Positions 54,128-64,000 of a DNA stretch of 64,000 bases are shown here, one piece after another. A program made the position numbers and the translations under genes. Each line of letters opens with the position of its first letter. Position 1 is the first letter of the stretch. The stretch covers positions 34,851-98,850 of the forward strand of contig JAQUWY010000002.1 of NCBI GenBank assembly GCA_028692655.1. Reading direction: 5' to 3'. This stretch comes from Candidatus Omnitrophota bacterium. Lineage in GTDB: Bacteria; Omnitrophota; Gorgyraeia; Duberdicusellales; 4484-171. The notes below the pieces were generated by a model that saw nothing but the letters and a program-made list of their open reading frames with translations, was not told the origin of the DNA and searched no databases.

Positions 54128-54155
54128 TTGATAAAAATTTTATATCTGATATCAT
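54128..54155 (+). promoter_or_regulatory. candidate promoter of rex (TTGATA-16-TATCAT) within an AT-rich repeat region
   Basis: TTGATA at 54128-54133 and TATCAT at 54150-54155. The surrounding direct repeat AAATTTTATAT occurs twice, with flanking TCAGA/TCTGA inverted ends. Only 7 nt from the putative GTG start, so the start codon or the promoter call may be off. Confidence 0.25.
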
Positions 54156-54162
54156 AGAGTTT

Positions 54163-54822
54163 GTGAAAAATAGAACGAATATTATTCTTTGCTCAAAAAA
54201 GGCAAAATGTTCGAGTGAAATTATAAAACGGCTCAGCCTTTACTTGCGTAATCTTAAGCGGCTTGAGAAGGAAGGGGTTGAGACAATTTCTTCAGATAAG
54301 ATTACTCAGTTTTTGAATGCCAGTTCAGTGCAGTTTAGAAAAGATCTTTCTTATTTCGGCGGTTTTGGAAAGCCTGGTGTGGGGTATAAAGTTAAGTCAT
54401 TGCTTAAAGAGCTTGAAAATATACTGGGAGTAAATCAGGAGTGGGATATTGCCTTGGTTGGTGCCGGCAGGCTAGGGGGAGCGCTGTCACGCTTTGAAGG
54501 GTTTTCCCGGTTTAATCTGCGGATTGTTTGTGTGTTTGATAACGATAAGAAAGTTATAGGGAAAAAAAGAGGCCAGCTTCTGATCCAGGACGTGAAAGAC
54601 TTAGTAAAAACGGTTGAAAGAAAAAAAATCAGAATTGCTATAATCGCGACCCCTATGGAAGCCGCACAGAGCGTATGTCACGAGCTGACTAAAGCCGGGG
54701 TTAAGGGGATATTAAACTTTTCTCCCTTAGTTCTCAAAGTTCCCAATGGCGTTTGCGTTTCCAATGTTGATATGGCCTGTGAGCTTGAAAGTCTTATTTA
54801 TTTCGCCAAAAGGAAAAGATAA
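54163..54822 (+). CDS. rex: redox-sensing transcriptional repressor Rex
   Basis: 219 aa (GTG start). N-terminal winged helix (IIKRLSLYLRNLKRL, similar to B. subtilis IPQATAKRLPLYYRFLKNL). FRKDLSYFGGFGKPGVGY, then the Rossmann NADH site LVGAGRLGG. Confidence 0.85.
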   Translation: MKNRTNIILCSKKAKCSSEIIKRLSLYLRNLKRLEKEGVETISSDKITQFLNASSVQFRKDLSYFGGFGKPGVGYKVKSLLKELENILGVNQEWDIALVGAGRLGGALSRFEGFSRFNLRIVCVFDNDKKVIGKKRGQLLIQDVKDLVKTVERKKIRIAIIATPMEAAQSVCHELTKAGVKGILNFSPLVLKVPNGVCVSNVDMACELESLIYFAKRKR

Positions 54823-54838
54823 TTAACGGGAGGCAGAC

Positions 54839-55105
54839 ATGATTAAAAAGACTTTGCTCTTGGTTCTTGTAAATGTGCGCAAAGAGTCAGCAGCTAAGGT
54901 GCAAAAGATACTTACCGATTGGGGTTGTATTATAAAAACCCGCTTGGGAATACATGATGGGGTGCTTGATGATTGCACTAATTCAGGACTTATAATCCTT
55001 GAGCTTGTCGGAAGCGATAACCAGGCTCAGGAAATTAACCATAAGCTTAATCTCTTGGCTGGGGTTAAATCTGAGATCGTGGAGCTGCAGTTGCCTAAAG
55101 ATTAA
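54839..55105 (+). CDS. small ACT-like protein, putative [FeFe]-hydrogenase system regulator (TM1266-like)
   Basis: 88 aa with a GGGAGG RBS. Secondary-structure-like pattern of an ACT/NikR-C-terminal fold. Lies between rex and the hydrogenase structural genes. Family assignment is from memory of the TM1266-type family and is not verified. Confidence 0.35.
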   Translation: MIKKTLLLVLVNVRKESAAKVQKILTDWGCIIKTRLGIHDGVLDDCTNSGLIILELVGSDNQAQEINHKLNLLAGVKSEIVELQLPKD

Positions 55106-55134
55106 CCTAAAATAGCAATAAAAGGTACTAAAAG

Positions 55135-55674
55135 ATGAAATATAGCTTAACAAAACACAGGCCGGAGAAGATCAAAGACCGCTTAAGAATAGATAATATT
55201 ATTTCCCGCCATAAAGATACTCCCGGAGAATTATTGAATATCTTGGAAGAAACCCAGATTTTAAGTAAATATAACTATCTTTCTCCCGCTCAGTTGAAGT
55301 ACATAGCCGAAAAAACTTCTTACCCGCTTTCTGTGGTTTACAGCGTAACCACTTTTTATTCTTTTTTTAACCTTAAGCCTCAGGGGGAACATTGTATAAT
55401 TGTCTGCCGGGGTACTGCATGCCATACCAAAGGGTCGCGCCGGATACTGGATTATCTAGAAAGTGTGCTTGATTTTGGCGATGAAAAAATCAATGAAGGA
55501 GAGAAAGTTTTTTTAACTACAAAAGACAAAGTTATTACTATTAAGACTGTTGCTTGTTTTGGCCAGTGCGCTCTTGCGCCTGTGGTTGAAGTAGACGGAA
55601 TCATTCATAGCCGGATGACTGTAGAAAAGATGAAAAAAGTATTGTCAGCTTTAAAAAAGAAGGGCCTTAAATGA
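55135..55674 (+). CDS. NuoE-like [2Fe-2S] thioredoxin-fold subunit of multimeric [FeFe]-hydrogenase (HydC/HndA-like)
   Basis: 179 aa. CRGTACH...C...CFGQCALAP four-Cys pattern of the NuoE/HoxE family. Confidence 0.85.
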   Translation: MKYSLTKHRPEKIKDRLRIDNIISRHKDTPGELLNILEETQILSKYNYLSPAQLKYIAEKTSYPLSVVYSVTTFYSFFNLKPQGEHCIIVCRGTACHTKGSRRILDYLESVLDFGDEKINEGEKVFLTTKDKVITIKTVACFGQCALAPVVEVDGIIHSRMTVEKMKKVLSALKKKGLK

Positions 55675-58600
55675 AAGTGGTTGATATTAAAACCCTTGAA
55701 AAGGTAAAAGCAAAAGGGTTAAAAAAACTCTTTCCTTCTGTGGCTAGGATTACGGTAGGTTTAGGCACCTGCGGTGCCGGCAATAATGCGCAAGGGATTT
55801 ATGATTTTCTTGAAAGATATTTCTCAAAAAAGAAAAAAAGGATTTTTCTCACCAAAACAGGCTGCTTTGGATTTTGTGCTCAAGAACCTTTAGTTACTTT
55901 TAGGGTTCCGGGAAAGCCTCTGCTTATGTTCAGTAAGCTTAATGAGAAGTCCGCGAAACGCATAGCTGATAGCGTTTTACAGGGTGCACCTGATTCCGGT
56001 AATATTTTGTGTAAGATAGAAGAATGGGACCACTTAACTTCAAAATTAAATTATGGCAAAGGGTATCCTGCGATTCCTTCTTGGAAAGAGGTTCCTTTTT
56101 TTAAGAGGCAGAAAAAAATAGTTTTGAGAGACTGCGGGTTGATTAACCCCGATGATATAGAAGAATATTTCGGAGTAGGAGGCTACAGTGCACTTTTTAA
56201 AGTTTTGCATCAGTTTAGCCCTCAGGAGTGTTTGAATGAAGTAAAGGAATCTGGATTGCGTGGCCGGGGAGGAGCAGGCTTTCCGGTTTGGAAAAAATGG
56301 GAGATTCTTAAAAATAAAGTATCCGATAAAAAATATATTGTTTGCAATGCCGATGAAGGCGATCCCGGGGCATATATGAATAGGAACGAGTTGGAAGGTG
56401 ACCCTCATATGATTATAGAGGGTATGGCTATAGCCGGCTTTATTACCGGTTCTCATGAAGGAATCATATATTGCCGTGCAGAATATCCTCTGGCTGTAGA
56501 AAGGCTTCATAATGCCATTGCTCAGGCTAAAAGATACGGTGTTTTAGGCGCAAAGGTACTCGGTTCTGATTTTGATTTTAACCTTCATATTGTTGAGGGG
56601 GCAGGTGCTTTTGTCTGCGGAGAGGAGACCGCCCTCATTGCTTCTATTGAAGGAAAATCCGGACGCCCGAATGTCAGGCCGCCTTTTCCGGCAGAAAAAG
56701 GTATTTGGGGCTATCCTACCAATATAAATAATGTCGAGACCTGGGCTAATATCCCGGTGATTATAGCAAAAGGGGGAAAAGATTTTTCTCTTACGGGAGC
56801 AAAAGGAAACTCCGGCACTAAAGTGTTTTCTTTGGTGGGCAAGGTTAAGAATACCGGTCTGGTTGAGCTTCCTCTGGGCACGAGCCTTCAGACTCTTGTC
56901 TTTGATATCGGCGGAGGCACCGGCACGAATAAAAAAATAAAAGCAGTTCAGACCGGCGGGCCTTCGGGCGGATGCATACCGATGCGCCTCTTTAATACTC
57001 CCATTGATTATGAGTCTCTAACCAATTTAGGCACGATTATGGGTTCGGGAGGCGTAGTGGTTATGGACGAAGATAATTGTATGGTTGATGTTGCCAGATA
57101 TTTTACTGAATTCACTACTGCGGAATCTTGTGGTAAGTGTACTCCCTGCCGAGAGGGTTTAAGCCAGATTTTAAAGATGCTGCAGGATATTGCTGCCGGC
57201 AGGGCTTCGATTGATATTCTGGATAAGGCAAGCGAATTAGGCAGTATAATAAAAGATTCGGCTCTTTGCGGATTAGGCCAGACCGGGCCCAATCCACTTT
57301 TAACCACCCTGAAATATTTTCGGCAGGAATACAAACAGCATATTAAAGATAATTATTGTGATGCGGGAGTCTGTCAGGAAATGTTTTTAGCCCCTTGTGA
57401 AAATAGCTGTCCCTTACATATGAATATACCGGCTTATCTTTCGATGTTTGAAGAAGGAAGGGTAAAAGATGCTTTCGAGTCTATAATCAGGGATAATCCT
57501 TTGCCGGCTTCTATAGGAAGGATTTGCCATTTTCATTGTAAGCTTCGTTGTCGCAGAGAAGATATAGATTCTCCCGTTGCTCAAGGAGAAGTCCACCGCT
57601 ATATAGCGGATGTTCTTCGCGGAACAAAAGAAGAAAAAGAAGTGCTTGATAAGATTTGTAAAGAAAAACTTCCTTTAACCGGGAAAAAAATAGTCATTAT
57701 CGGTGCCGGCCCGGCAGGGCTTACCGCGGCATATTATCTCATACGCTTAGGGCATAAAGTAACTGTTTATGACCGGGCTCATGAGGCCGGCGGGATACTG
57801 CGATGGGGAATTCCGGCATACAGGCTTCCCCGTGATATTTTGAAGCACGAGATAGGTTTTTTGGGTAAATTAGGGGTGAAATTTATTTTTAATAAAAAGA
57901 TTTCTCCTCGCGATATAAAAAGCTTGCAAGAAAAATCTCAGGCGTTAATTATTGCCGCTGGCGCTTACAAAGAAATTTCTCTGAATATACCCGGAGAAGG
58001 CTCAAGCGGCGTATTTTCCGGAAGTAGTTTTCTGGAGAGCATTGCCGGCGGCAGGAAACCGGCAATTGGGAAAAAGGTGGTTATTGTAGGCGGAGGAAAT
58101 GTAGCCATAGATGCTGCCAGGAGTGCTATGCGCCTGGGGGCAAGAGTTACTATAGTTTATCGCCGGCAGGAACCAGATATGCCGGCTAATCACGCTGAAA
58201 TTCTTGAGGCTTATAAAGAAGGCGTAAAGATGTTGTTTATGAGAGCCCCCAAGAGAATAATAGGCTCAGATCCGGACAATAAAGTCAAAGCTATAGAATT
58301 GTCAGTAATGAAACCAGGCCCGTGTGATTCCTCCGGAAGGAAAAAACCTCTGGATACGGGTGAAACTGAAACTTTAGCTTGCGATACAATACTCTTTGCT
58401 ATCGGAGAACGTGTTGATGCTGACTTTGCTGCCGCCTGCGGGCTTGAACTTACGGCTTACAAAACAATAACTGCTGATGAATTCACTTTAGAAACTAATA
58501 TAAAAAAGGTTTATGCGGGAGGAGATATAGTTACCGGCCCGGGGACTGCGGTTGAAGCCATGGCTCAGGGAAAGCGTATGGCAAGAGCTATCGATAAGAA

Positions 58601-58826
58601 TCTGGCTTCTTGTGATAGGTTTGGGCTTCTATATAAAACGTTTGATTACAGTAATCAGGCTCCTTTTAAACCGGCGCCTGCTGCGCGAAGCAAGATAAAA
58701 GTTATGGATTTAAATAAACGTTTAAAAGGTTTCAAAGAGGTTTCTTTTGGCTTAAGTCCTGTTCAGGCAAAAGTAGAGTGCCAACGGTGTTTGCGCTGTG
58801 ATATCAAGGAAATAAGCGGCATCTAA
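55671..58826 (+). CDS. three-module flavoprotein: HndB-like [2Fe-2S] domain + NuoF-like (FMN/NADH, [4Fe-4S]) + GltD-like (FAD/NAD(P)H, 2x[4Fe-4S]) fusion
   Basis: 1051 aa. N-terminal GTCGAG...GCFGFC Trx-like domain. NuoF core [33 protein letters not shown]. From ~nt 57355 a glutamate-synthase-small-subunit-like domain: YCDAGVCQE...C..C Fe-S region, IIGAGPAGLTAAYYL (FAD), VVIVGGGNVAIDAARSA (NAD(P)H). Confidence 0.85.
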   Translation: MKVVDIKTLEKVKAKGLKKLFPSVARITVGLGTCGAGNNAQGIYDFLERYFSKKKKRIFLTKTGCFGFCAQEPLVTFRVPGKPLLMFSKLNEKSAKRIADSVLQGAPDSGNILCKIEEWDHLTSKLNYGKGYPAIPSWKEVPFFKRQKKIVLRDCGLINPDDIEEYFGVGGYSALFKVLHQFSPQECLNEVKESGLRGRGGAGFPVWKKWEILKNKVSDKKYIVCNADEGDPGAYMNRNELEGDPHMIIEGMAIAGFITGSHEGIIYCRAEYPLAVERLHNAIAQAKRYGVLGAKVLGSDFDFNLHIVEGAGAFVCGEETALIASIEGKSGRPNVRPPFPAEKGIWGYPTNINNVETWANIPVIIAKGGKDFSLTGAKGNSGTKVFSLVGKVKNTGLVELPLGTSLQTLVFDIGGGTGTNKKIKAVQTGGPSGGCIPMRLFNTPIDYESLTNLGTIMGSGGVVVMDEDNCMVDVARYFTEFTTAESCGKCTPCREGLSQILKMLQDIAAGRASIDILDKASELGSIIKDSALCGLGQTGPNPLLTTLKYFRQEYKQHIKDNYCDAGVCQEMFLAPCENSCPLHMNIPAYLSMFEEGRVKDAFESIIRDNPLPASIGRICHFHCKLRCRREDIDSPVAQGEVHRYIADVLRGTKEEKEVLDKICKEKLPLTGKKIVIIGAGPAGLTAAYYLIRLGHKVTVYDRAHEAGGILRWGIPAYRLPRDILKHEIGFLGKLGVKFIFNKKISPRDIKSLQEKSQALIIAAGAYKEISLNIPGEGSSGVFSGSSFLESIAGGRKPAIGKKVVIVGGGNVAIDAARSAMRLGARVTIVYRRQEPDMPANHAEILEAYKEGVKMLFMRAPKRIIGSDPDNKVKAIELSVMKPGPCDSSGRKKPLDTGETETLACDTILFAIGERVDADFAAACGLELTAYKTITADEFTLETNIKKVYAGGDIVTGPGTAVEAMAQGKRMARAIDKNLASCDRFGLLYKTFDYSNQAPFKPAPAARSKIKVMDLNKRLKGFKEVSFGLSPVQAKVECQRCLRCDIKEISGI

Positions 58827-58844
58827 ATGTATAGAGGAAATTGT

Positions 58845-60626
58845 ATGGGTAAAAAGACATGCAACGTAAAGATAAACGGAACTAATTGTCAAGCTGAAGA
58901 AGGGATTAATCTTGTAGAAGCTTGCTTGCAGCAGGGAATTATAATTCCGACACTTTGCTACCTCAAGGATCTTAATGAAAGCGGAGCTTGTTCAGTTTGT
59001 TTGGTTGAAGTCAAAGGTGCTAAGACTCTGCTTCGGGCTTGTGTTACTAAGGTTAGAGACGGAATGGAGATATATACTGATACCGAGCGTATCCGGCGGG
59101 CCCGTAAAGTTGTTGTAGAACTTATTCTGGCCAATCATCCCAAAGATTGCCTGGGGTGTGAAAAAAACCAGAATTGTGATCTGCAAAGAATAGCTTATGA
59201 GTTAGGTATTGAAAATATACGTTATCCAAAAACGCGCCAGAAAGATTTCTCTATAGACAACTCATCTCCTTCAATAATAAGAGACCCTAACAAGTGTATT
59301 TTATGTGGAAGATGTATAGAGGTGTGCAGTAAAATTCAAGAAGTTAACGCTATTGATTTTATCAAGCGTGGGCATGCAATGCAGGTTTCGACATTTTTTG
59401 ATGGCGGTTTAGGGAATTCAGAATGTACTAATTGCGGCCAATGTGTGTTGGTCTGCCCTACGGGGGCTTTAGCCGAGAACAACTCTATAGGCGAGGTCTG
59501 GAGAGTTTTAGACGATAAGGAGCAGATAGTAATAGTTCAGACTGCGCCGGCGATAAGAGCGGCAATCGGCGAAGCTTTTGGTTTTAATACAGGGGTTCCG
59601 ACTACCGGAAAATTAGCCGCTTCCCTGCGGCGCTTGGGGTTCTCTAAGATCTTTGATACGCAATTCGCTGCTGACCTCACTATTATCGAAGAAGGTTCGG
59701 AGTTTCTCACAAGATTAAAAAATAATGATAAAATACCGACAATTACGTCTTGTTCTCCCGGTTGGATAAAATTTGGCGAAACTTTTTTCCCGGGAATATT
59801 GGATAATATTTCAACCTGTAAATCACCGCAGCAGATGTTCGGTGCAATAGCTAAGACCTATTATGCTCAAAAGATGAACATTGATCCCAGGAAAATTAAA
59901 ATAATTTCTGTTATGCCCTGCACCGCGAAGAAATTCGAAGCTTTACGCCCGGAAATAAACAGTGCATTTTCTTTCTGGAAAGATAAGCTTGCTCTTAGTA
60001 AAAAAGAATACTTTCCCGATGTTGACTATGTGCTTACGACTCGGGAATTAATCAGGATGATAAAAGAGGCGGGCATTGATTATGCAAATCTTGCCGATGA
60101 AGGATTTGATGACCCTCTGGGGGTTTCTACCGGTGCAGCTACTATATTTGGTGCCAGCGGAGGGGTGATGGAAGCCGCTCTTCGTTCAGCATATTTTTAT
60201 TTAACCGGCACAGAACTTAAGGATATTGAACTGAATGCCGTAAGAGGGCTCTCCGGAATCAAAGAAGCCAGTTTAGAAATAGCCGGAAAAAAGATAAAAG
60301 TTGCGGTTGCCCACGGCCTGGGTAATGCCCGCAAATTAATGCAGCAGGTTGCAAGAGGCGAGAGCCCGTATCATTTTATAGAAATAATGGCTTGTCCCGG
60401 AGGCTGCATCGGCGGAGGCGGCCAACCTTTACCGGTCAATGATGAGATCAGGAAGCTTCGCATAAAAGCGCTTTACCAAGAGGATAGAAGCCTTGCCTAT
60501 CGCCGTTCTCATCAGAACCCGGCTGTTATAAAGCTCTATTCCGAATTTCTTAAAAAACCAAATGGGCACCTTTCTCATAAGCTTCTTCATACGCACTATC
60601 ATAAGCGCCAGCCGGTTAAAATATAA
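58845..60626 (+). CDS. hydA: [FeFe]-hydrogenase catalytic subunit HydA (M3/CpI architecture) with variant L1 motif TSCSPGW
   Basis: Start preferred at ATG 58845 (RBS AGAGGA 7 nt upstream). The alternative is ATG 58827, directly after the upstream stop codon. N-terminal [2Fe-2S] domain, His-ligated cluster HPKDCLGCEKNQNC, and 2x[4Fe-4S] (CILCGRCIEVC; CTNCGQCVLVCP). H-cluster motifs L2 MPCTAKKFE and L3 EIMACPGGCIGGGGQP are present. L1 reads TSCSPGW (nt 59745-59765). Confidence 0.9.
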   Translation: MGKKTCNVKINGTNCQAEEGINLVEACLQQGIIIPTLCYLKDLNESGACSVCLVEVKGAKTLLRACVTKVRDGMEIYTDTERIRRARKVVVELILANHPKDCLGCEKNQNCDLQRIAYELGIENIRYPKTRQKDFSIDNSSPSIIRDPNKCILCGRCIEVCSKIQEVNAIDFIKRGHAMQVSTFFDGGLGNSECTNCGQCVLVCPTGALAENNSIGEVWRVLDDKEQIVIVQTAPAIRAAIGEAFGFNTGVPTTGKLAASLRRLGFSKIFDTQFAADLTIIEEGSEFLTRLKNNDKIPTITSCSPGWIKFGETFFPGILDNISTCKSPQQMFGAIAKTYYAQKMNIDPRKIKIISVMPCTAKKFEALRPEINSAFSFWKDKLALSKKEYFPDVDYVLTTRELIRMIKEAGIDYANLADEGFDDPLGVSTGAATIFGASGGVMEAALRSAYFYLTGTELKDIELNAVRGLSGIKEASLEIAGKKIKVAVAHGLGNARKLMQQVARGESPYHFIEIMACPGGCIGGGGQPLPVNDEIRKLRIKALYQEDRSLAYRRSHQNPAVIKLYSEFLKKPNGHLSHKLLHTHYHKRQPVKI

Positions 60627-60684
60627 CCAGTAATGTTTCATATTGCCAAAAGCCGTCATTTTCTATAAAATAATTAAATATTAT

Positions 60685-60712
60685 TTGACAGGCTCCTTGC
60701 CGGTGATATAAT
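60685..60712 (+). promoter_or_regulatory. sigma70-like promoter of the downstream hnd-type hydrogenase operon
   Basis: TTGACA (60685-60690), a 16-nt spacer, then TGaTATAAT extended -10 (60704-60712). Confidence 0.5.
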
Positions 60713-60728
60713 CGCCTATCACCCAAGA

Positions 60729-60746
60729 TTGTGACAAAATTCACAA
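60729..60746 (+). promoter_or_regulatory. Rex operator
   Basis: TTGTGACAAAATTCACAA is a perfect inverted repeat matching the Rex consensus TTGTGA-N6-TCACAA. It lies ~17 nt downstream of the -10 and 29 nt upstream of the NuoE-like ATG. Confidence 0.65.
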
Positions 60747-60774
60747 ATAATTATAATCATAAATTCATAGCCCT

Positions 60775-61260
60775 ATGGAAGCCAGCAATAATATCAGAAG
60801 TGATAAAGAAATTAAAGACCTGGTTGAGAAATGGAAAGGTGTGGAAGGCAATCTTATTATGATCCTGCATACCATACAGGATGAGTATGGTTATATTCCC
60901 CGCCACGTATCTTTTGAGCTCCAGAAATTGCTTGATATACCTTTAGCCAGGATTTATGAAGTAATAACTTTTTATAATTACTTCAAACTGGAACCGCCGG
61001 GAAAGCATAAGATATCTCTTTGTATGGGTACAGCTTGTTATCTTAAGGGCGGGGTTGACATATTAGGAGAGCTAAAAAGCATACTGCATATAGAACCCGG
61101 CCAGACTACAAAAGACGGGCTATTTACTATTGAACTGGTTAGATGCCTTGGCTGCTGCGGCTTATCACCGGTAATGATGATTGACGGAAAGATTTACGGA
61201 AAACTGTCTCAGGAAAAAATTCCCGAGATTCTAACGCATTATATAGAAGCCGAAAGTTAA
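60775..61260 (+). CDS. hndA: NuoE-like [2Fe-2S] subunit (HndA-like)
   Basis: 161 aa. CMGTACY...C..C...LGCCGLSP NuoE-family Cys pattern. Confidence 0.85.
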   Translation: MEASNNIRSDKEIKDLVEKWKGVEGNLIMILHTIQDEYGYIPRHVSFELQKLLDIPLARIYEVITFYNYFKLEPPGKHKISLCMGTACYLKGGVDILGELKSILHIEPGQTTKDGLFTIELVRCLGCCGLSPVMMIDGKIYGKLSQEKIPEILTHYIEAES

Positions 61261-61281
61261 ATTTTAGAATAAGGCGGGTAA

Positions 61282-61623
61282 ATGGATAAGCTAACTAAAG
61301 ATAATTTTCAAAAAGCTAAAAACGATTCAGTCCAAAAGAAAACTAATTGGATAAAAGTGGGCATGAGCACCTGTGGTATAGCAGCCGGGGCCAGAGAGGT
61401 TTACGATACTTTAACCGAGGAAGTTAAACGCCGTAACCTCAACATTGATATTCTTAAGACTGGGTGTTTAGGCATGTGCTATATTGAACCTCTGGTAGAA
61501 GTTTGTATAGAGGGAGTACCGCATGTTGTCTATGGTAATGTCGATACAAAGGCTGCGTTGGGAATTGTTGATAAACATATTTGCGGCAAGAGAGTTATGA
61601 ATGACCATTTGGTAATAAAGTAA
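61282..61623 (+). CDS. hndB: small thioredoxin-like [2Fe-2S] ferredoxin subunit (HndB-like)
   Basis: 113 aa. STCG...GCLGMC...C Cys pattern. Homologous to the N-terminal domain that is fused to NuoF in the first operon. Confidence 0.7.
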
Positions 61624-61631
61624 TAAAGGCT

Positions 61632-63374
61632 ATGTATAGAAAAACAATATTTATAAAGGATACCGATTCCCAAGGGCTTGACCGCACCAAGGAATTCTAT
61701 AATAAGTTTTTGGAAAACCTGCGCTCGAGAAATCTTCAAAATGACATTCAGGTTGCCAGGGCAGCTGATATCGGTATATATAACCAGGGAATTGTCTTGA
61801 GGGTTTATGGCGAGGACACAATATATGTTCAGCTTAAAGAAACGGATATTGATAATATTATTTCTCTCACCATCGAAAAAAATGAAATTATATCTTCCTT
61901 GCAATATAAGAAAAAAGATAAGCAATTAAGAAGAGTGTTGAGAAACTGCGGGGTTATAAATCCTGACTGTATTGAGGATTATCTTGCTAATGGAGGCTAT
62001 CAAGGGCTTTATAAAGTGTTAACTTCGTTGAAGCCGGAGGAAGTTATTAAAGAGTTAAAAATAAGCGGCTTGCGCGGGCGCGGCGGCGGCGGCTTTCCTA
62101 CCTGGATGAAGTGGGATTTTGCGCTTAAGACAGAATCCGATCAGAAATATATTATTTGTAACGGAGACGAAGGCGATCCCGGGGCTTATATGGACCGTAG
62201 CGTTTTAGAAGGAGACCCTCATTCGGTAATAGAAGGGATGATCATTGCCGGTTATACTATAGGCGCTAGCAAGGGTTATTTTTATATCCGCGCGGAGTAT
62301 CCCCTGGCGATAGAAAGAATTCAAAATGCTATTGACCAGGCCTATTCCAAAGGATTGATAGGCGAAAAGATATTAAACAGCGGTTTTAATTTTGATTTAT
62401 CCATACGCCTTGGTGCCGGAGCCTTTGTTTGCGGTGAGGAAACCGCTCTTATTGCTTCTATTGAGGGCAAACGCGGTACGCCCTTGCCTAGGCCGCCCTA
62501 TCCTTCGGTAAAAGGCTTATGGTCTAAGCCTACAGTTATTAATAATGTAGAAACTTTAGCTAATGTTGCTTATATATTTATTAGGGGAGCAAAAGAATTT
62601 GCTAAACTGGGAACTGAAACTTCCAAAGGAACAAAAGTATTCGCTTTAACCGGAAAAGTAAAAAACTCCGGGTTGATAGAAGTCCCCATGGGAACTACGT
62701 TAAGGGAGATAGTCTTTGATGTTGGCGGAGGAGTTTTAGATAATAAAAATATAAAGGCAGTTCAGACCGGAGGGCCCTCCGGAGGAGTTATCCCTGCCCA
62801 GTATCTGGATACGCCTGTAGATTATGAAAATCTTAGTAAGCTTGGTTCGATAATGGGTTCAGGCGGCATGATTGTTATGGATGAAACTGATTGTATGGTC
62901 GATATAGCAAAGTTTTATTTAGGTTTCTGCGTTGAAGAATCTTGCGGTAAATGCGCACCTTGCAGGATCGGCGGCAGTCAGATGCTTGATATATTAACCC
63001 GCATATCCAAGGGCCAGGCTCAAAACCATGATTTGGAGACGCTAAGCAGGATATCGTTTGCCATGCAAAAAGCTTCTCTTTGCGGTTTAGGCCAAACTGC
63101 CCCCAATCCGGTTGTTTCTACTTTGAAGCATTTTCTTCCGGAATACAAAGAACATACCGAGAATAAACGTTGTCCGGCGGGAAAATGTTTGGATCTTTTA
63201 AGCTATAAGATTATTGACGAAAAATGTAAACGCTGCGGAGCCTGCGTACGGATTTGTCCGGTTAGTGCTATAAGTGGAAACCGCGAACATGGTTACAGTA
63301 TAGACACTCAGAAATGTACAAAATGCGGCCAGTGCATTAGTGTTTGCAAATTTAAAGCGATATCTAAGGAGTGA
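61632..63374 (+). CDS. hndC: NuoF-like NAD(P)H-binding flavoprotein with C-terminal 2x[4Fe-4S] ferredoxin domain (HndC-like)
   Basis: 580 aa. [35 protein letters not shown]-terminal [12 protein letters not shown] / [11 protein letters not shown]. The N-terminal ~110 aa contains no cysteine. Confidence 0.88.
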
Positions 63375-63375
63375 C

Positions 63376-64000
63376 ATGGTAAAAGCGAAAATAAATGGCA
63401 TAGATGTCCAGGTGGCCAGAGGCACCTCTATTCTTACTGCTGCTAAAAAAGTTAATATAAAAATTCCTTCGCTTTGCAAACATCCTGATTTGGACGCTAC
63501 TGCGGCTTGTGGTATATGTATTGTAAAAGTTAAGGGCAGCAAAAAAATGCTGCGTTCGTGCTGCACGCCCTTGGAAGAGGGTATGGATATCATAACCCAC
63601 GATGACGAACTTCAGGATATAAGGCGTACAGTTATTGAGTTAATCTTATCCAACCATCCCGATGAATGCCTTGAATGCGGCCGGAATAATAACTGCGAAC
63701 TTCAAAAATTAGCCGCTGATTTTGGTATTCGCCAACAGCCGTTTAAAGAATTTTTGAGAGACCTTCCTAAAGATGACTCAACAAAAACTATTGTTATTGA
63801 TCCACGTAAATGTATTCAGTGCGGCAGATGTGTGCAGGTTTGCCAGGATATGCAGGATGTTTGGGCCCTTTCTTTCTTAGAGAGAGGGATCGAAACCCGG
63901 ATATCGCCGGCCGGAGACATAAATCTGTCTGAAAGTCCATGCGTGCGTTGCGGCCAGTGTTCAGCTCATTGTCCTACCGGGGCTATCGTTGAATACGATG
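63376..64000 (+). CDS. hndD: [FeFe]-hydrogenase catalytic subunit N-terminal part (HndD-like), 3'-truncated by window end
   Basis: Frame open to the window end. [2Fe-2S] domain (CKHPDLDATAACGICIV...C), HPDECLECGRNNNC, CIQCGRCVQVC, CVRCGQCSAHCPTGA. The H-cluster domain lies beyond the window. Confidence 0.8.
   Translation, partial: MVKAKINGIDVQVARGTSILTAAKKVNIKIPSLCKHPDLDATAACGICIVKVKGSKKMLRSCCTPLEEGMDIITHDDELQDIRRTVIELILSNHPDECLECGRNNNCELQKLAADFGIRQQPFKEFLRDLPKDDSTKTIVIDPRKCIQCGRCVQVCQDMQDVWALSFLERGIETRISPAGDINLSESPCVRCGQCSAHCPTGAIVEYD

Follow-up and report, generated by a model that had tools for sequence, protein, structure and literature searches.

Why a bacterium should carry two multimeric [FeFe]-hydrogenases next to each other behind one redox sensor, and whether the two perform the same reaction, are the questions raised by a stretch of 64,000 nucleotides from Candidatus Omnitrophota (GenBank assembly GCA_028692655.1, contig JAQUWY010000002.1, positions 34,851 to 98,850 of the forward strand; hereafter, the window). 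Positions 54163-64000 of the window hold rex followed by two hydrogenase gene sets and make up the beginning of a chromosomal hydrogenase supercluster within a metagenome-assembled genome (MAG) of this candidate phylum. A first-pass annotation, made from the sequence alone, had described set 1 as a small ACT-like protein, NuoE, an HndB-NuoF-GltD fusion and HydA, and set 2 as HndA-HndB-HndC-HndD-like, and had regarded the two as paralogous solutions to the same job with different redox-partner wiring, NAD(P)H versus NADH. The gene content, strand and domain calls of both sets were borne out: rex, set 1 and set 2 all lie on the + strand as uninterrupted open reading frames (ORFs), and the domains were assigned by profile searches against Pfam and NCBIfam. 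On the evidence given below, we consider it probable that set 1 couples H2 to both nicotinamide adenine dinucleotide (NAD(H)) and its phosphate (NADP(H)) without ferredoxin, and that set 2 is a canonical H2/NAD(H)/ferredoxin enzyme gated by Rex.

A GltD module at the position of the ferredoxin-type domain

The central protein of set 1 is the fusion flavoprotein, which is built of three parts. Residues 1 to ~135 form an HndB-like thioredoxin-like domain that aligns to the separate HndB of set 2 and has Cys residues in common with it, in agreement with the first-pass assignment of this N-terminus. Residues ~140-572 constitute a NuoF/HydB core with sites for flavin mononucleotide (FMN), NAD(H), the B1 [4Fe-4S] cluster and B2/Zn. 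The FMN motif GRGGAGFP and the NAD(H) loop are retained, the B1 ligands are C487, C490, C493 and C533, and the equivalents of the B2 site are C470, T482, H557, C563 and C568; the unusual B2 site described for A. mobile HydB consists of Cys438, Cys/Thr476, His525, Cys531 and Cys536 (PMC8880783). Residues 573-1051 (window 57387-58826) form a GltD module of the Nfn/Stn type, with seven conserved Cys for two [4Fe-4S] clusters, the flavin adenine dinucleotide (FAD) motif GAGPAG and the NADP(H) motif GGGNVA together with YRR. The authors of the Stn work take GxGxxA as NADP(H)-specific (PMC7483475).

The junction between the second and third parts is the crucial feature. Residues 24-572 align to the BfuB/HydB chains in the PDB, and these alignments end at ~540 of 597 residues, where the ferredoxin-type domain of those chains begins. 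Residues 573-1046 align instead to the GltD modules of StnC (8oh5_C), 9bov_A, archaeal NfnA (9n5u_A) and P. furiosus NfnI-L (5jca_L), and the module is closer to the Nfn/Stn type (E-values of 1e-97 to 1e-85) than to true small subunits of glutamate synthase (GOGAT; 1.7e-51). The first Cys of the module (C576) lies only 8 residues past the last Cys of the B2 site (C568). A C-terminal Fer4 dicluster domain was found in the fusion neither with Pfam nor in the PDB alignments, and it is absent in all 132 members of the fused family. Throughout these 132 members the core ligands that were checked, the seven Cys of the GltD module, GxGxxA, YRR and the Arg of GIPxYRLP are invariant. Thus, the C1-B2 branch, which in HydABC, Stn and NiFe-Bfu enzymes ends at a ferredoxin-reducing domain, would here be hard-wired to an FAD/NADP(H) site.

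The GltD module is also circularly permuted relative to NfnB and GltD, as is the Stn/NfnABC insert: the helix with the pattern F.EV..G.....A..EA.RCL.C is found at residues ~1014-1046 of the fusion, that is, at its C-terminal end, versus residues 16-48, at the N-terminal end, of NfnI-L. The permutation that the fusion and the Stn/NfnABC insert have in common suggests that the two grafts share ancestry.

Set 2 and the relation to known enzymes

Set 2 differs from set 1 at precisely this point. Its HndC aligns over the full length, including the C-terminal 2x[4Fe-4S] domain, to 9bov_B (7e-215), 7q4v_B and 7t2r_B, and comprises a Cys-less N-terminal domain, FMN/NAD(H) sites, B1, the B2 site and the C-terminal 2x[4Fe-4S] ferredoxin-type domain. 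The gene order is HndA-HndB-HndC-HndD. By all these features set 2 appears to be a canonical NAD(H)- and ferredoxin-linked Bfu/Hnd enzyme, an ordinary member of the HydABC/Hnd type (group A3/A6). This order agrees with that of Hnd (HndABCD) of Desulfovibrio fructosovorans, in which HndB is likewise a separate small protein and HndC has an N-terminal thioredoxin-like domain without cluster Cys (Hnd properties, PMC7483475); unlike that enzyme, set 2 belongs to another phylum and has a predicted Rex operator. The contrast between NAD(P)H and NADH drawn in the first-pass annotation accordingly holds in part. Set 1 does have an additional NADP(H)/FAD module, although both sets keep the NAD(H)/FMN site, and the PDB alignments place the difference elsewhere, in that the NADP(H)/FAD module of set 1 replaces the ferredoxin-type domain that set 2 retains.

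Among characterized systems, HydABC/FeFe-Bfu (T. maritima, A. woodii, T. kivui; 7p5h, 7q4v, 8a6t) has the three-subunit design HydC(NuoE)-HydB(NuoF)-HydA that is also seen in set 1. Set 1 keeps the H-cluster motifs, FMN/NAD(H), B1, the His/Cys B2(Zn) site and C1 of these enzymes, and its HydA-1 is nearest to the T. kivui and A. woodii HydA1 proteins and has the Ser ligand of the latter; set 2 matches HydABC over the full length, the C-terminal dicluster domain included. Where HydB of HydABC has a C-terminal 2x[4Fe-4S] putative ferredoxin site (B3/B4), set 1 has the GltD module of ~480 residues with FAD/NADP(H) motifs. The definition of the Bfu family includes the C-terminal domain of BfuB, IPR017896 (PMC9304861), so that set 1, in which this domain is absent, lies outside the criteria of that survey.

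The Stn/NfnABC systems (S. ovata StnABC, 8oh5; T. sibiricus, 9n5u; 9bov) combine a NuoE-like protein, a NuoF-like core and an NfnB/GltD-type module, as set 1 does, and their modules, which have the same circular permutation, are the most similar to that of set 1 (E-values of 1e-97 to 4e-90). However, in these systems the module is inserted in the NuoG-like BfuA, as a third-substrate input without an H-cluster, and BfuB keeps the ferredoxin domain, whereas set 1 carries it on BfuB, at the ferredoxin domain's position, and has a full HydA as its BfuA. Group A2 of HydDB also consists of HydA proteins genetically associated with a GltD-type protein, the role of which is putative (PMC5037454). That group is defined by GltD/GltA without NuoF immediately downstream of hydA; in set 1 GltD is fused to NuoF and encoded upstream together with NuoE, and the gene immediately downstream of hydA-1 is the set 2 NuoE.

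In the open-access literature and bioRxiv, absence from which is not proof, we found no description of a NuoF/HoxF::GltD hydrogenase, nor any characterization of the dual arrangement, the prior existence of which the first-pass annotation had named as a possible objection. A GltD-fused HydB is not mentioned in the mSystems Hydrogenedentota paper, in Nobu 2020 or in a rumen paper, and in the Omnitrophota genome papers hydrogenases appear only under the generic label 'group A3'. The fused diaphorase for NAD(H) and NADP(H), with its replaced ferredoxin port, is conserved, widespread and apparently undescribed. The statement that the arrangement is not a textbook one can be kept to this extent; Rex control of [FeFe] hydrogenases is known (PMC6391272), and such control is not new in principle.

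Integrity of the two H-clusters

The proposed couplings presuppose functional catalytic subunits in both sets. HydA-1 contains the motifs L1 (TSCSPGW), L2 (MPCTAKKFE) and L3 (EIMACPGGCIGGGGQP), scores 860 bits against the 765-bit cut-off of the NCBIfam model for '[FeFe] hydrogenase group A6', and has as its best PDB matches, end to end, T. kivui HydA1 (8a6t, 7.7e-190) and A. woodii HydA1 (7q4v). Its L1 has Ser in place of one Cys ligand of [4Fe-4S]H (TSCSPGW, not TSCCPxW; window 59750-59790). This substitution is not a defect, because the identical Ser (Ser301) occurs in A. woodii HydA1, an enzyme with full activity and the usual H-cluster signature (PMC10021017), and because the Ser-type L1 is the majority form, present in 25 of the 31 multimeric HydAs sampled. 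The possibility of a dead H-cluster in HydA-1 was accordingly rejected, and the group A6 score and the match of L1-L3 to the active A. woodii enzyme point to a catalytic-type protein.

HndD, with its start corrected to 63376, is incomplete inside the window (208 residues), and in this respect set 2 is not as complete-looking as had been stated. A sequence-identical Logan contig (L001 in our numbering of loci) extends HndD to 358 residues and includes L1 (TTCCPSW) and L2 (MPCTSK); the protein of this organism can thus be read up to its last ~223 residues, through L1 and L2. The orthologues (>120 database clusters, 73-84% identity) are ~581 residues long and contain both H-domain Pfam families, and L1-L3 are intact in all five inspected by motif. 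In two relatives hndD is complete, and a TM1266-like gene, hydG and another radical-SAM gene come after it. To the extent that its sequence is available, HndD thus appears intact, and its orthologues have the full length. Neither a disabling loss of H-cluster ligands nor, in the available sequence and the orthologues, truncation or decay of set 2, both of which the first-pass annotation had named as possible objections, was found. The set 2-type HydA clade, which is Omnitrophota-specific among the sampled HydAs, has TTCCPSW as its L1.

Distribution of the fused diaphorase

The fused diaphorase appears to be a portable module that occurs in many phyla and is common to different hydrogenase classes. 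We surveyed 51 fusion loci with >3 kb of downstream sequence: the fusion is followed by HydA in 10, by HoxU-like, HoxY-like and [NiFe] large-subunit genes in 29 (from phyla that include Acidobacteriota, Chloroflexota and Proteobacteria), and by a HoxU-like gene alone in 12. A rex gene lies upstream in five of the ten HydA-linked loci, in addition to the window, and in none of the 29 [NiFe]-linked ones. The series NuoE, NuoF::GltD, HoxU-like, HoxY-like and [NiFe] large subunit, exemplified by L014:9456-15862 and L056:9459-15950 and repeated at 27 further loci, would encode a [NiFe] hydrogenase of the Hox/group-3 type whose diaphorase is HoxF::GltD. At L016:9440-13912 and 11 further loci, the trio of NuoE, fusion and HoxU-like genes has no hydrogenase catalytic subunit within 10 kb (the neighbours at L016 are accA and genes for a CAAX protease and a methyltransferase); it could encode a new transhydrogenase-like complex, or its partner could be encoded elsewhere.

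The combination found in the window is not restricted to its phylum. In a Margulisiibacteriota MAG (L088:8847-22911), rex, NuoE, fusion, HydA, hydF, hydG and hydE lie in this order on one strand and are followed by a second, canonical-type set that encodes an HndB-like protein, NuoF (499 residues), HydA (598 residues) and NuoE. The theme of rex, fused set and canonical set therefore recurs in another phylum; a good Rex operator was not found at this locus. In other Omnitrophota the surroundings of the fused set vary: at L087 it is accompanied by maturase genes and at L086 by NfnAB-like genes and ackA, in neither case with rex. In L087 and L088 the maturase genes, hydF/hydE or hydF/G/E, come immediately after the fused set. 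An NfnA-like (280 residues) and an NfnB-like (466 residues) protein are encoded immediately upstream of that set at L086:5907-9421 and L043:8086-9321, and L086 has the acetate kinase gene there too. In a neighbor-joining (NJ) tree the fusions of L050, L053 and L074 cluster with canonical NuoF cores, a hint that these fusions arose independently.

Origin and regulation of the two sets

Between set 1 and set 2 the identity is 39.5% for NuoE, 55.7% for the NuoF core and 45.9% for HydA, and in the NJ trees, which are rough and without support values, set 1 and set 2 occupy separate deep clades, for the NuoF core as well as for HydA. Within each clade the window and its relatives L002, L003 and L004 branch congruently. 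The deep separation together with the congruent branching indicates that both sets are old and vertically kept, rather than products of a recent duplication; they are best regarded as deep, separately inherited lineages, and the term 'paralogous', if taken to mean duplication, does not stand up to the phylogenetic comparison that the first-pass annotation had itself proposed. The synteny of lipopolysaccharide (LPS) genes, rex and set 1 is retained in relatives at 82%, 67% and 63% identity. By contrast, set 2 directly adjoins set 1 only in the window and in the closest relative, L002, and lies 4-5 kb downstream of set 1 in L003 and L004 (the 63-67% relatives). The genes in between are thiM, thiE, a GDT1-family gene, MTHFR and a gene for a tetratricopeptide repeat (TPR) protein (L003:15093-19105; L004:15082-20060, with two Sulf_transp genes in addition), an insert that the window and L002 do not have there; the 330-residue product encoded just before set 2 in the relatives is a plain TPR protein rather than a MetV-like one. 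The tandem layout is thus a lineage-specific juxtaposition of two widespread gene sets.

Set 2 was thought to have its own promoter and a Rex box, and this is upheld. The sigma-70 promoter in front of it is the only site in 10 kb with a 12/12 match, and a predicted Rex operator, TTGTGACAAAATTCACAA, follows with 17 of 18 positions matching the 18-bp consensus TTGTGAANNNNTTCACAA (taken from PMC6391272); the chance expectation for such a site is 0.02 per window. The operator extends from about +9 to +27 relative to the inferred transcription start, and a position just downstream of the start fits repression. The promoter hexamers do not vary between the window, L002, L003 and L004 although their flanks have diverged, and the operator is present at the same spacing in L002 (with one change), L003 and L004, forming a phylogenetic footprint. 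Rex control of set 2 is well supported by these comparisons, and set 2 would be derepressed when NADH/NAD+ rises. Rex has been found to repress [FeFe] hyd genes in C. bescii by electrophoretic mobility-shift assay (EMSA), such control being established in Firmicutes, and rex can autoregulate in Rex regulons that contain hydrogenases (PMC6391272). The regulons of Caldicellulosiruptor, Thermoanaerobacterium and Clostridium have a TTGTGAANNNNTTCACAA operator in the promoter region of [FeFe] hyd genes, as does set 2; they differ from the present case, which belongs to a candidate phylum of the Planctomycetes-Verrucomicrobia-Chlamydiae (PVC) group and has rex inside the predicted operon of one hydrogenase and the clear operator before the other.

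The situation at rex itself is less clear. A promoter-like site precedes it, the -10-like TATCAT of which is conserved in relatives, and a conserved TTGTGAAAA half-site, part of a degenerate Rex-like box, covers the GTG start. TTTGTGAAAA is invariant in 5 loci and has 3-4 mismatches to the full Rex consensus, and it may be a weak autoregulatory site or reflect mere coding constraint. The notion that both sets are under one redox sensor consequently applies to set 2, with its predicted operator, and extends to rex and set 1 only as far as this half-site. The GTG start is ~7 nt past TATCAT (window 54128-54170), leaving no room for a Shine-Dalgarno sequence, which suggests a leaderless mRNA or a mis-called start; hndA (60775) likewise has no obvious Shine-Dalgarno sequence. 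No intrinsic terminator was predicted between set 1 and set 2.

Predicted reaction of set 1 and alternative explanations

The cofactor sites described above would provide set 1 with three ports, one for H2/H+ (HydA), one for NAD(H) (FMN) and one for NADP(H) (the fused FAD), and with no port dedicated to ferredoxin. Electrons from the H-cluster would pass through the HydA clusters and B1 to FMN, and the FMN core would send one part of them to NAD+ at this flavin and the other into the C1-B2 branch, ending at FAD/NADP+. The reaction would be reversible and ferredoxin-independent: 2 H2 + NAD+ + NADP+ = NADH + NADPH + 2 H+. This scheme draws on the low-potential branch C1-B2-B3 and the B2 ligands reported in PMC8880783, and on the placement of ferredoxin reduction at HydB/StnB's C-terminal domain (PMC10021017, PMC10482914). 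The cellular potentials commonly used are ~-280 mV for NAD and ~-380 mV for NADP (PMC9304861), and by our own calculation their mid-point, -330 mV, corresponds to ~100 Pa H2; hence, at environmental levels, H2 would be the mid-potential substrate that the Bfu logic requires.

Several observations weigh against this interpretation. Ferredoxin could dock elsewhere, for example, at the F-domain clusters of HydA or at an N-terminal [2Fe-2S] domain. T. kivui HydABC uses NADP at the NuoF site (PMC10021017), where nucleotide specificity is unreadable from sequence, and we found no determinants of NAD/NADP specificity for this site in that paper. The GltD module keeps the GIPxYRLP Arg that is linked to flavin bifurcation in NfnB, as might be expected of a second bifurcating flavin. 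Finally, a full Rex operator was found neither before rex and set 1, where there is the half-site only, nor in the more distant fused loci L086-L088. The first of these points leads to the view that set 1 is still ferredoxin-dependent, a combined HydABC and Nfn machine in which the GltD module is an extra port and ferredoxin reacts at another cluster. The F-domain of HydA-1 is indeed complete, and the NfnAB-like genes that immediately precede the fused set in L086 and L043 would bring ferredoxin/NADP exchange near the locus in those organisms. We nevertheless regard this as rather unlikely, given that the C-terminal 2x[4Fe-4S] domain, the sole ferredoxin-reducing domain of HydABC/Stn with experimental or structural support, is absent in 132 of 132 members and that the GltD graft occupies exactly its position. 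The Arg, which is equivalent to R201 of Pf NfnI-L, would also be accounted for if the GltD FAD bifurcated as in NfnB, with the reversible reaction 2 NADPH + NAD+ + H+ = 2 NADP+ + NADH + H2; the module is nearest to the Nfn/Stn type and its number of Cys, seven, is that of NfnB. However, the FAD has neither an NfnA-like partner nor another exit path, the module being linked through a single chain, and StnC, the most similar solved module, has lost bifurcation and feeds the FMN core only (PMC10482914), which makes this scenario improbable.

Two further explanations were considered. The sets might be functionally redundant isoenzymes, their layout a neutral accident of gene order, as could be argued from the 4-8 unrelated genes that separate them in the 63-67% relatives (thiM, thiE, GDT1, MTHFR and TPR) and from the other Omnitrophota in which no second set lies near the fused one. 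Yet the cofactor architecture differs between the sets at the ferredoxin/NADP port, both are retained across the lineage with congruent phylogeny, their promoter and operator arrangements differ, and rex, fused set and canonical set are seen again in the Margulisiibacteriota MAG, so that redundancy is very hard to credit. The GltD module might, alternatively, pass electrons from H2 to a GltB-type subunit, making set 1 a 'glutamate synthase-linked' hydrogenase in the sense of HydDB A2. Pfam and NCBIfam do place the C-terminal module in the GltD/GltA superfamily, and HydDB proposes a glutamate synthase role for GltD-associated HydAs (PMC5037454); but neither the region of the window nor any of the 11 [FeFe]-linked loci that we inspected contained a gltB-like gene, the module resembles Stn/Nfn far more than it does the small subunits of GOGAT, and set 1 does not have the A2 order, a GltD without NuoF downstream of HydA. 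We give this explanation next to no credence.

Gene layout and the 88-residue protein

The features of the locus are collected in Table 1. In set 1 and before it the genes are closely spaced: the gap between rex and the 88-residue protein gene is 16 nt and has the Shine-Dalgarno sequence GGGAGG, NuoE1 (in which the Cys ligands CxxxxC...CxxxC are present) and the fusion overlap by 4 nt, and the fusion and hydA-1 are contiguous. From this spacing we infer that rex, the TM1266-fold gene, hydC1, hydB1::gltD and hydA1 would form one tightly packed operon. The intergenic gaps of set 2 are 1-21 nt.

Table 1. Predicted genes and regulatory sites of the hydrogenase locus (window coordinates)
Feature	Coordinates	Strand	Basis
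Promoter-like site upstream of rex, TTGATA-N16-TATCAT with extended TG (putative)	54128..54155	+	10/12 match; function inferred
Conserved TTGTGAAAA half-site, degenerate Rex-like box over rex GTG start	54161..54178	+	Alignment of relatives
rex, redox-sensing transcriptional repressor, 219 aa	54163..54822	+	Pfam Put_DNA-bind_N and CoA_binding; NCBIfam Rex, 255 bits vs 126-bit cut-off
88-aa CPF_0552-family protein	54839..55105	+	NCBIfam CPF_0552, 96 bits vs 85-bit cut-off
Set 1 HydC/NuoE-like [2Fe-2S] subunit (hydC1), 179 aa	55135..55674	+	Pfam 2Fe-2S_thioredx, 6e-37
Set 1 (thioredoxin-like)::NuoF::GltD fusion (hydB1::gltD), 1051 aa	55671..58826	+	Complex1_51K, NADH_4Fe-4S, Fer4_20 and Pyr_redox_2
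HydA-1, [FeFe]-hydrogenase catalytic subunit, 599 aa, F-domain and H-domain	58827..60626	+	Pfam Fe_hyd_lg_C and Fe_hyd_SSU
Set 2 sigma-70 promoter, TTGACA-N16-TATAAT	60685..60712	+	Promoter scan, 12/12
Predicted Rex operator, TTGTGACAAAATTCACAA	60729..60746	+	17/18 match to consensus TTGTGAANNNNTTCACAA
Set 2 HndA/HydC/NuoE-like [2Fe-2S] subunit, 161 aa	60775..61260	+	Pfam 2Fe-2S_thioredx, 4e-47
Set 2 HndB-like small thioredoxin-like [2Fe-2S] protein, 113 aa	61282..61623	+	Weak Pfam 2Fe-2S_thioredx; NCBIfam 2Fe-2S ferredoxin matches
Set 2 HndC/HydB/BfuB, 580 aa, NuoF with C-terminal 2x Fer4	61632..63374	+	Pfam; full-length PDB alignments
HndD/HydA-2, N-terminal 208 codons (F-domain), cut by window end	63376..64000	+	ORF, start at 63376

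The protein encoded between rex and hydC1 was fairly described as small and ACT-like. It passes the NCBIfam cut-off for CPF_0552 and scores 23 bits against the TM1266 equivalog (cut-off 60.8), and a sequence search of the PDB gave no match. An AlphaFold2 model built with 64 homologues (pLDDT 93.4) has the topology beta-alpha-beta-beta-alpha-beta, and its top Foldseek match is TM1266 (2nzc; TM-score 0.78-0.86), followed by PII-like SbtB and the regulatory C-domain of NikR. The protein is a putative small-ligand-binding regulator. In the relatives L089:9936-11754 and L090:9914-11676, a bona fide TM1266-family gene, hydG and then a radical-SAM gene (possibly hydE) lie behind set 2, so that the locus would contain two different small proteins of the TM1266 fold. 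A 790-residue database protein (P0241), in which 15 separate stretches match residues 52-84 of the 88-residue protein, resembles an odd tandem-repeat relative of its family.

Upstream, the window contains rpoB, rpoC, fusA, tuf, secY, rpoA, topA, waaA, lpxL and heptosyltransferase genes, which places the hydrogenase locus in the core chromosome and not on an island. These genes extend over window 996-49191, with the rpoB-rpoC-fusA-tuf-ribosomal protein-secY-rpoA block first and then topA and the LPS core genes (waaA, lpxL-like and several GT9 heptosyltransferases); all are on the + strand, and the GC skew is positive throughout.

Implications

The mechanism of bifurcation in HydABC/Bfu enzymes and the site of ferredoxin reduction are an active question. 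The fused family represents a natural swap of the proposed ferredoxin-reducing domain in which the other core ligands are invariant, and is thus a ready-made test of the idea that the C-terminal domain is the low-potential exit. The fused enzymes, now annotated only as 'FAD-dependent oxidoreductase', 'NuoF' or 'group A3', are common in Omnitrophota, Bacteroidales and the Acidobacteriota of soil and peat, which have the [NiFe]-linked form. If the predicted reaction is true, the way in which H2 metabolism is inferred from metagenomes would change.

A more general proposal, which we put forward tentatively, is that NuoE and the (Trx-like)::NuoF::NfnB-type fusion constitute a hitherto unrecognized, phylogenetically widespread diaphorase module in which NADP(H) replaces ferredoxin at the low-potential port of the bifurcating Bfu core. 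In that case, the HydA-linked enzymes of Omnitrophota, Margulisiibacteriota, Bacteroidales and some Bacillota would be ferredoxin-independent and would equilibrate H2 with the NAD and NADP pools; the HoxUYH-type [NiFe]-linked enzymes of many Acidobacteriota, Chloroflexota and Proteobacteria would likewise be ferredoxin-independent hydrogenases that equilibrate H2 with both pools; and the stand-alone trio of NuoE, fusion and HoxU would be a new kind of transhydrogenase. For the organism studied here, the pairing of the fused enzyme with a Rex-gated canonical one suggests a division of labour between redox pools, in which the two hydrogenases, if the proposal is correct, would connect the NADH, NADPH and ferredoxin pools via H2.

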